From IMG/VR virus record IMGVR_UViG_2541047931_000002, positions 1 through 31,884 of that record: DNA of 31,884 bases, one strand, 5' to 3'. The first letter of the stretch is position 1; each line of letters begins with the position of its first letter. The notes under the pieces were generated by a model. The model searched no databases. It had not been told where the DNA came from and was given only the letters and a program-made list of their open reading frames with translations. The position numbers were made by a program, and so were the translations under genes. Origin of the DNA: a virus. Its lineage: Duplodnaviria > Heunggongvirae > Uroviricota > Caudoviricetes. Below, piece after piece: positions 26,382-26,992 of the stretch.

Positions 26382-26755
26382 TATTCCTCCTACAATCAAT
26401 GTGCAATTACATTTAAACACACCTCAATTTGGCCGGACATATAAATATCTAAACCAGAAAAAATCACTTACATAGCGTTACAAACTCTTTAGTCTAAATA
26501 TTCATCGTAAAACATTCCCCATACTTATCAGCCCGTTCTGCGCCAGGTAGCTCATTGCCTTATCTGGGAATCTGTAATCAGGTTTCCGGATGCTGGTGGA
26601 TTTTCGCGTTTTAGTTGTTCATAAAAGTGCACAGCTTTAACCAGTTCTTCTGATGTAACCGGGACTGGCGGGGCAGTGAATAAGGCCTGAATTTCATAGT
26701 TCGGCCTATCGTTACAATCCTCTTTTTTCGGTACATATTTCCAGTCACCAGACCA

Positions 26756-26992
26756 CTACTTCCCCTGAAAGTCCGTAACGCCTTTTTTCACGTAGCGATA
26801 TCGCCATGCCACTGGTTTTGCTTGCCCCGCCGTTTCATACCCTTCCTGATAATTAATCTCGCTCATCAGATATCTTGTTGCCCCAGTTTTAGTTTCCAGT
26901 TGTCGTAACGTCTCGCGCCCACTCTGGCGTACGAGTTCAACAACCTGTCCTTTAATTTTTTCCCGCTCTTCTTGTGTAAAAACTTTTGCCAC
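26756..26992 (-). CDS. Hypothetical protein (78 aa) ending at an in-frame TAG followed by a further open frame
   Basis: GTG start with AGGAGGG RBS; MAKVFTQEEREKIKGQVVELVRQSGRETLRQLETKTG...; frame stays open for 67 more codons past the TAG (to about 26552). Confidence 0.5.
   Translation of the reverse strand: MAKVFTQEEREKIKGQVVELVRQSGRETLRQLETKTGATRYLMSEINYQEGYETAGQAKPVAWRYRYVKKGVTDFQGK

Follow-up and report, generated by a model that had tools for sequence, protein, structure and literature searches.

A probable chimeric pseudogene joining lygF to an amber-bearing phrog_660 gene in the early-right operon of a Qin-like Escherichia coli prophage

Two described phage protein families are relevant to the locus analyzed here. 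The first is LygF/DUF977 (PF06163; PHROG 142), represented by URC10042.1 of Escherichia phage vB_EcoS-640R1, and the second is PHROG 660, represented by the 119-aa URC08893.1 of phage vB_EcoS-689R5. In the window, by which we mean the whole 31,884-nucleotide stretch of DNA under analysis (IMG/VR virus record IMGVR_UViG_2541047931_000002), an open reading frame (ORF) shares 39 of its first 42 residues with URC10042.1, and lies at the same site directly after the replication-initiator gene, with the same ribosome-binding site and GTG start. However, it retains only the first ~42–45 of about 140 residues and cannot encode a functional DUF977 protein. With PHROG 660, the window shares the MSEINYQEG start, the core PVAWRYRYVKK..W.GDWKYV..KEDCNDRP.YEIQALF and a position flanked by a 58-aa gene and hok/sok. 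The window copy differs by an amber at codon 37, 61 nt missing near the 3′ end, a shifted C-terminus and the loss of its upstream context. PHROG 660 is itself a mosaic family, the core of which also occurs behind Ead/Ea22-like N-termini or ahead of a DUF551 extension. The literature on LygF and DUF977 yielded nothing useful.

The pseudogene status of the region is already part of the public annotation. RG36_RS29465 of E. coli D3 (NZ_CP010140.1, 2678015–2678455), which PGAP names "DUF977 family protein" with an internal stop, corresponds exactly to positions 26552–26992 of the window. The unfused sister allele, which shares this TAG, is annotated in E. coli C as B6N50_RS23910 ("hypothetical protein", frameshifted; internal stop). 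While the PGAP feature in D3 implies one gene with one lesion, our analysis identifies one deletion junction between two parental genes, along with several lesions, and the name "DUF977 family protein" fits less than a third of the pseudogene that it annotates. What we add is therefore that the region is a two-gene fusion with several lesions, and that the amber is older than the fusion. The 601 bp around the pseudogene are 100% identical in ten complete E. coli chromosomes. We consider the region, with a probability of about 0.9, to be a chimeric pseudogene without function, located in the early-right operon (replication to Q) of a lambdoid, Qin-like E. coli prophage.

The window is a lambdoid, Qin-like E. 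coli prophage. Its early-right operon, on the minus strand, contains a cro-like gene (28597–28812), ydaT (28175–28600) and the replication initiator gene (27033–28109; phrog_3729), followed by the chimeric pseudogene, and then by hokD/sok, a DUF968 (YdfU-like) gene (24291–25340), rusA and the Q antiterminator gene. The Rfam matches in the window are sok (25938–26112, minus strand), DicF (30825–30876, plus strand), two tRNAs and STnc100, and the presence of both the DicF sRNA and the sok antitoxin RNA confirms the Qin-like character. No Rfam family was found inside the pseudogene span, and neither a sigma-70-like promoter nor an intrinsic terminator was found between 25700 and 27200. The Qin prophage of K-12 MG1655 has only the hokD segment in common with the region around the pseudogene. 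In the Rac prophage of K-12, ydaW (186 aa) directly follows ydaV, a position at which related prophages have a DUF1627 gene, not a DUF977 gene; judged by position only, ydaW was dropped as a candidate DUF977 fragment.

In a full-length comparison with strain D3, the aligned parts of the window are only 95.6–99% identical, and the immunity region did not align. In this region (28597–29578), a 71-aa cro-like ORF (28597–28812, minus strand) is intact in the window and is accompanied by a 257-aa cI/LexA-like ORF (28805–29578, plus strand). The Cro/CI gene of D3 is frameshifted and its LexA-family gene is short, although D3 carries the identical fusion pseudogene, and this difference points to short-scale mosaic recombination. 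Further observations were made elsewhere in the prophage. A full-length match to the STnc100 sRNA family (21804–21993, minus strand; 132 bits against a gathering threshold of 47) lies in the moron area of the late region, near the iraM site of D3. Two tRNA genes (22693–22766 and 22870–22942, minus strand), annotated as tRNA-Arg and tRNA-Ile in D3, are located just downstream of the Q gene. The ORF at 25342–25749 (minus strand) encodes 135 aa from a GTG, of which PGAP calls only the last 92 (25342–25620) and PHROG 1212 matches only residues 70–135; its 5′ extension overlaps a plus-strand "hypothetical protein" (25609–25806) and the 3′ end of hokD. An AT-rich island (GC 0.35–0.40) between sok/hok and the pseudogene contains ORFs at 26202–26420 (minus strand) and 26218–26475 (plus strand). 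The 72-aa ORF on the operon strand encodes two membrane-like hydrophobic stretches (MFKCNCTLIVGGIMKNALQFLFVAFWLF...). D3 has no PGAP feature at this site, and in phage records it is the 85-aa ORF of the opposite strand that is annotated, once as "hornerin". The island ORF has no PHROG matches, and its tblastn matches are confined to three phages, all of which carry the TAG allele.

The frame across the amber was retranslated from the minus strand of positions 26540–26992. A GTG at 26992–26990, placed 4 nt downstream of the lygF Shine–Dalgarno sequence AGGAGG (26997–27002, minus strand, read directly from the sequence), opens a run of 78 sense codons (VAKVFTQ...DFQGK). The run ends at a TAG (26758–26756), which is codon 79 of the chimeric frame and codon 37 of the phrog_660 gene. 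The same frame then continues for 67 sense codons (WSGDWKYV...DSQIRQ) to a TGA at 26554–26552. The original prediction, a 78-aa GTG-initiated ORF followed by a TAG and 67 open codons, is reproduced exactly. In the stretch from 26755 to 26552, the first 58 codons (WSGDWKYV...ENPPASGN) are formerly coding and the last nine (LITDSQIRQ) are frameshifted.

The length of the open run is a poor guide on its own. The stop frequency of the window, 0.038 per codon, gives a probability of 7% for 67 codons without a stop ((1−p)^67), and 7.3% of the 2,443 stop-to-stop intervals in the window reach at least 67 codons, while the 201-nt downstream stretch stays open in 1.9% of mononucleotide shuffles. The chance is thus 2–7% depending on the null model, so that the earlier estimate of roughly 4 percent was about right but says little by itself, and the run carries small weight alone in a window with thousands of stops. 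These 67 codons are, however, 79–95% identical to phage genes at the protein level, and it is this homology, not chance, that decides that coding once extended past the TAG. As for a separate gene within the stretch, no in-frame ORF of at least 30 aa with an ATG, GTG or TTG start follows the TAG, and this candidate was rejected. The sole other ORF there, of 45 aa (26611–26748), is the out-of-frame read-out that follows the A7/A8 frameshifts of sister alleles, described below. The 67-aa part has no Pfam match, and the read-through translation has no NCBIfam match.

The homologs reveal what stood at the amber position. Intact phrog_660 members begin with MSEINYQEG and are 119 aa (689R5), 141 aa (P0006) or 171 aa (P0020) long. 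A protein search returned 324 matches (best E=1e-59), and tblastn gave alignments in one piece spanning the TAG, at 79% identity over 95–99% of the query (matches H33–H36). The phrog_660 profile matches the 78-aa ORF with E=5.7e-8, as compared with E=1.2e-72 for the intact 171-aa member P0020. Similarity to phrog_660 members is thus found on both sides of the TAG, and the window has no uninterrupted ORF bearing the core, with the TAG at codon 37. In the DNA alignment, the codon opposite the TAG is CAG (Gln) in the loci L004 (phage vB_EcoS-689R5) and L014, and CCG (Pro) in L008, while homologous proteins have Q, P, L, M or S at this position. The intact alleles at these three loci read on to 119, 141 and 171 aa, respectively. 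The TAG is thus a genuine CAG>TAG nonsense mutation, a C>T transition in the codon for Gln-37.

A sense codon in relatives is what the original prediction had proposed to look for, and its view that a nonsense mutation had struck a once longer gene is borne out by these alignments. The contrary finding that it named, homologs all ending at the TAG, was not obtained, as the intact alleles continue past it and have the core downstream. The core spans W38 to A78, and the residues invariant in the family on the 3′ side of the stop are W38, G40-D41-W42-K43-Y44-V45, C51–P55 and Y57–F63. Because these invariant residues lie directly 3′ of codon 37, the amber removes nearly all of the conserved core. 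An AlphaFold2 model of the intact 171-aa relative (pLDDT 51, pTM 0.32, from a 20-sequence alignment) was unusable.

One protein record appeared to be an intact allele with the flanks of the window allele. P0005 (119 aa, "...FQGKQWSGDW...") has Q at the amber position and identical flanks, but contig L013 (874–1233) has the TAG and its DNA does not translate to P0005. We rejected it as an intact allele, since it is a read-through translation produced by gene calling, and thus an artefact. The case illustrates that a homolog that seems intact in a large protein collection needs to be checked against the DNA.

The 78-codon ORF is composed of two parts, namely 42 codons of lygF and 36 codons of the phrog_660 stub. 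The PF06163 (DUF977) profile matches residues 1–41 only, at profile positions 1–41 of 134, with 31.4 bits for the 78-aa ORF (gathering cut-off 22.1) and 29.6 bits for the 146-aa read-through; a match along the full domain is absent, as profile positions 42–134 are missing. Similarly, phrog_142, a profile of 116 positions, matches residues 1–45 of the ORF, and the remainder matches phrog_660. The lygF 5′ fragment (DUF977 / phrog_142 "Ren-like exclusion protein") occupies 26867–26992 on the minus strand, as the GTG and 41 codons (VAKVFTQ...ATRYL). The phrog_660 remnant, from its ATG to the ancestral TGA, occupies 26502–26866 on the same strand (365 nt, with its 3′ end out of frame); it was delimited by tblastn and protein matches, the phrog_660 profile and DNA alignment with L014, L004 and L008.

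The junction between the two parts was resolved by comparison with phage 640R1 (L005), which has an intact 140-aa LygF. Window positions 28200–26860 align with L005 15–1355 at 98.1% DNA identity, a block that includes the 5′ end of this lygF, and positions 26866–25701 align with L005 2501–3669 at 98.8% identity. The two blocks overlap by 7 bp, ATGAGCG. Both parental copies of this repeat are present in L005 (1349–1355 and 2501–2507), 1,152 bp (384 codons) apart, and a single copy is left in the window, at 26860–26866 (minus strand). On the lygF side the repeat reads ..L-M-S-V, and on the side of the downstream gene it reads M-S-E, beginning with the start codon. Accordingly, the intact LygF of 640R1 reads VAKVFTQEEREKIKGQVLELVRQSGRETLRQLEAKTGATRYLMS/VLARELV... 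and the window reads ...ATRYLMS/EINYQEG..., with the slash marking the junction. The window has lost 1,152 bp by a deletion between two 7-bp direct repeats, and lygF now runs in frame into the ATG of the phrog_660 gene. Missing are lygF codons 45–140 and three small genes, namely a hypothetical gene of 137 aa, one of 60 aa, in whose place other loci have DUF7167, and one of 58 aa. In all relatives without the deletion, the phrog_660 gene has its own ATG, which overlaps the stop of the upstream 58-aa gene.

Further lesions accompany the amber in its lineage. An A6 homopolymer (26783–26788, minus strand) sits 24 nt upstream of the TAG, and it is in frame in the window and in E. coli C; the sister TAG alleles of strain CP53 and phage 640R1 have A7 and A8, respectively, and both are frameshifts. 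Compared with the intact 141-aa allele, those of E. coli C and PhiR42_1 lack 4 bp through a deletion and have a second TAG, a Q>amber change within SGNQINGL. The copies in the window, CP53 and 640R1 lack an additional 57 bp beyond the E. coli C / PhiR42_1 allele, and the scar was placed at about 26575–26589 (minus strand) from blastn offsets and a MAFFT alignment. In total, the window copy is 61 nt (57 bp and 4 bp) shorter than the intact 141-aa allele, with a shift of frame past ...ENPPASGN. The ancestral C-terminus, KPDYRFPDKAMSYLAQNGLISMGNVLR, can still be read in another frame than that of the TAG, ending at the ancestral stop at 26504–26502 (minus strand; ...KAMSYLAQNGLISMGNVLR followed by the stop), and the PGAP pseudogene of E. 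coli C ends at the equivalent stop. The nine codons LITDSQIRQ ahead of the TGA are an out-of-frame read-out, and not the ancestral C-terminus. The TAG lineage thus contains independent extra lesions of several kinds, namely A7 and A8, a second TAG, 4-bp and 57-bp deletions and a shifted 3′ end.

The frequencies of the alleles provide insights into the order of these events. A 41-mer centered on the TAG occurs in 915 of 5,426 complete E. coli genomes (17%), as well as in independently sequenced phages, and the same 41-mer with CAG in place of TAG occurs in none of the 5,426. The exact 41-mer of the fusion junction was found in only ten of these genomes, each annotated "DUF977 family protein" and all carrying the TAG. 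With the TAG in 915 genomes and the fusion in ten, all TAG-bearing, the TAG would be the older event, and an intact 146-aa product would therefore never have existed. To count alleles with the TAG in frame, a 65-mer spanning A6 and the TAG replaced a 41-mer specific for A7, which matched no genome even though CP53 carries A7, likely due to low-complexity masking of the A-run. The exact 65-mer is present in 475 genomes, and thus the in-frame A6 is kept there and the extra lesions are not universal. The narrow distribution of the junction suggests that the fusion-type deletion is recent and limited to a small clade. Broken alleles are also present in the records of phages 640R1, 813R8 and PhiR42_1, and the gene therefore appears to be dispensable.

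The lesions, the junction and the allele frequencies were observed directly, and from these comparisons we infer the following history, along with translation of the stub and its loss of function. A C>T transition would have converted the Gln-37 CAG of a small phrog_660 accessory gene, the nearest intact architecture of which is 141 aa, into an amber, leaving a 36-aa stub without almost all of the conserved core. The frame, free of selection, would then have accumulated more 3′ damage in the same lineage: the second TAG and the 4-bp deletion seen in E. coli C and PhiR42_1, then the 57-bp deletion of the window-type alleles, and A7/A8 slippage in the sisters. Recently, and in a small clade, the 1,152-bp deletion between the ATGAGCG repeats would have eliminated the 3′ two-thirds of lygF together with three small genes, so that lygF codon 42 would continue in frame into the start codon of a gene that had been broken before. 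In its present state, the 78-codon ORF keeps the ribosome-binding site and start of lygF, and only 40 nt, with no terminator-like site, separate it from the replication gene upstream. Because of these features, it is probably translated when the early-right operon is on. Such a product would have only the first ~45 of ~140 LygF residues and 36 residues of the second gene, and no function would be expected of it.

The lesion could alternatively be placed in a single ancestral gene of ~146 aa, running from the GTG at 26992 to the TGA at 26552 and split by one nonsense mutation, as the original prediction had it. The frame is indeed continuous across the TAG, and the PGAP model of this span is likewise a single pseudogene ("DUF977 family protein", internal stop). 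Nevertheless, the homology to DUF977/LygF ends at residue ~42–45, a deletion junction with 7-bp microhomology lies at 26866–26860, and in relatives without the deletion the second part has its own ATG. The TAG (915 genomes) is older than the fusion (ten genomes), the nine C-terminal codons are frameshifted, and no intact protein of ~146 aa with both ends was found among the best 120 of the 324 matches. A single ancestral gene is refuted by the junction and thus very unlikely; the nonsense mutation in a longer gene stands, while the one gene gives way to a chimera with its junction at 26866–26860 and its last nine codons out of frame. A further reading would attribute the TAG to faulty assembly or sequencing, or the 67 open codons to chance in non-coding DNA. 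In a 32-kb window, an open-run probability of 2–7% does give this reading some weight. Yet the identical TAG 41-mer recurs in several phage records and in 915 complete genomes that are independent of one another, and the downstream codons are 79–95% identical at the protein level to annotated phage genes and include the invariant residues of the family, which leaves artefact or chance with almost no credibility.

Another possibility would be that the amber is tolerated or used, through read-through or suppression, through a functional peptide of 36 aa (78 aa here), or because truncation of a costly full-length protein was selected. The TAG haplotype is indeed common, as 17% of complete E. coli genomes carry it, 475 genomes have it in frame, and it is present in sequenced phages. 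Moreover, pN/pS is ~0.2 among TAG alleles, a value based on tiny counts with recombination evident. The TAG is, however, limited to one close haplotype, with Q, P, L, M or S in the diverged homologs, and the downstream frame has been destroyed independently in sister alleles (A7, A8, the second TAG, the 4-bp and 57-bp deletions). The stop conserved in diverged homologs and the maintained downstream frame that would mark programmed read-through are both absent, and since the 3′ end of the window copy is itself frameshifted, read-through could not restore the ancestral protein. A lesion that is passed on as part of a widespread, cryptic Qin-like prophage would also be expected to reach a high frequency. 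We accordingly regard a tolerated or used amber as highly improbable. The same holds, with hardly any likelihood, for its more specific form, in which the amber allele would not be junk but would supply a functional N-terminal peptide (36 aa, here with 42 LygF residues) or a low-level read-through that doses a costly phrog_660 protein, as the 17% frequency, the 475 in-frame genomes and a substitution pattern resembling purifying selection might suggest. The pN/pS ratio is the one result that does not fit the picture of decay neatly: among three TAG alleles it is 0.13–0.26, the same as among intact alleles, with tiny counts of 3–7 changes per class. The TAG allele of L013 shows clear signs of recombination, its 3′ end being of the intact type, and the low ratio may reflect variation imported from functional alleles, rather than selection on the broken gene.

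To conclude, the chimeric pseudogene is a case of ordinary prophage gene decay. It has little importance beyond annotation hygiene, and no new biology follows from it, but the automated label "DUF977 family protein, internal stop" conceals a fusion of two genes. The locus offers a traceable example of decay, in which a nonsense mutation would have been followed by homopolymer slippage and small deletions, and finally by a microhomology-mediated deletion that generated a chimeric ORF.
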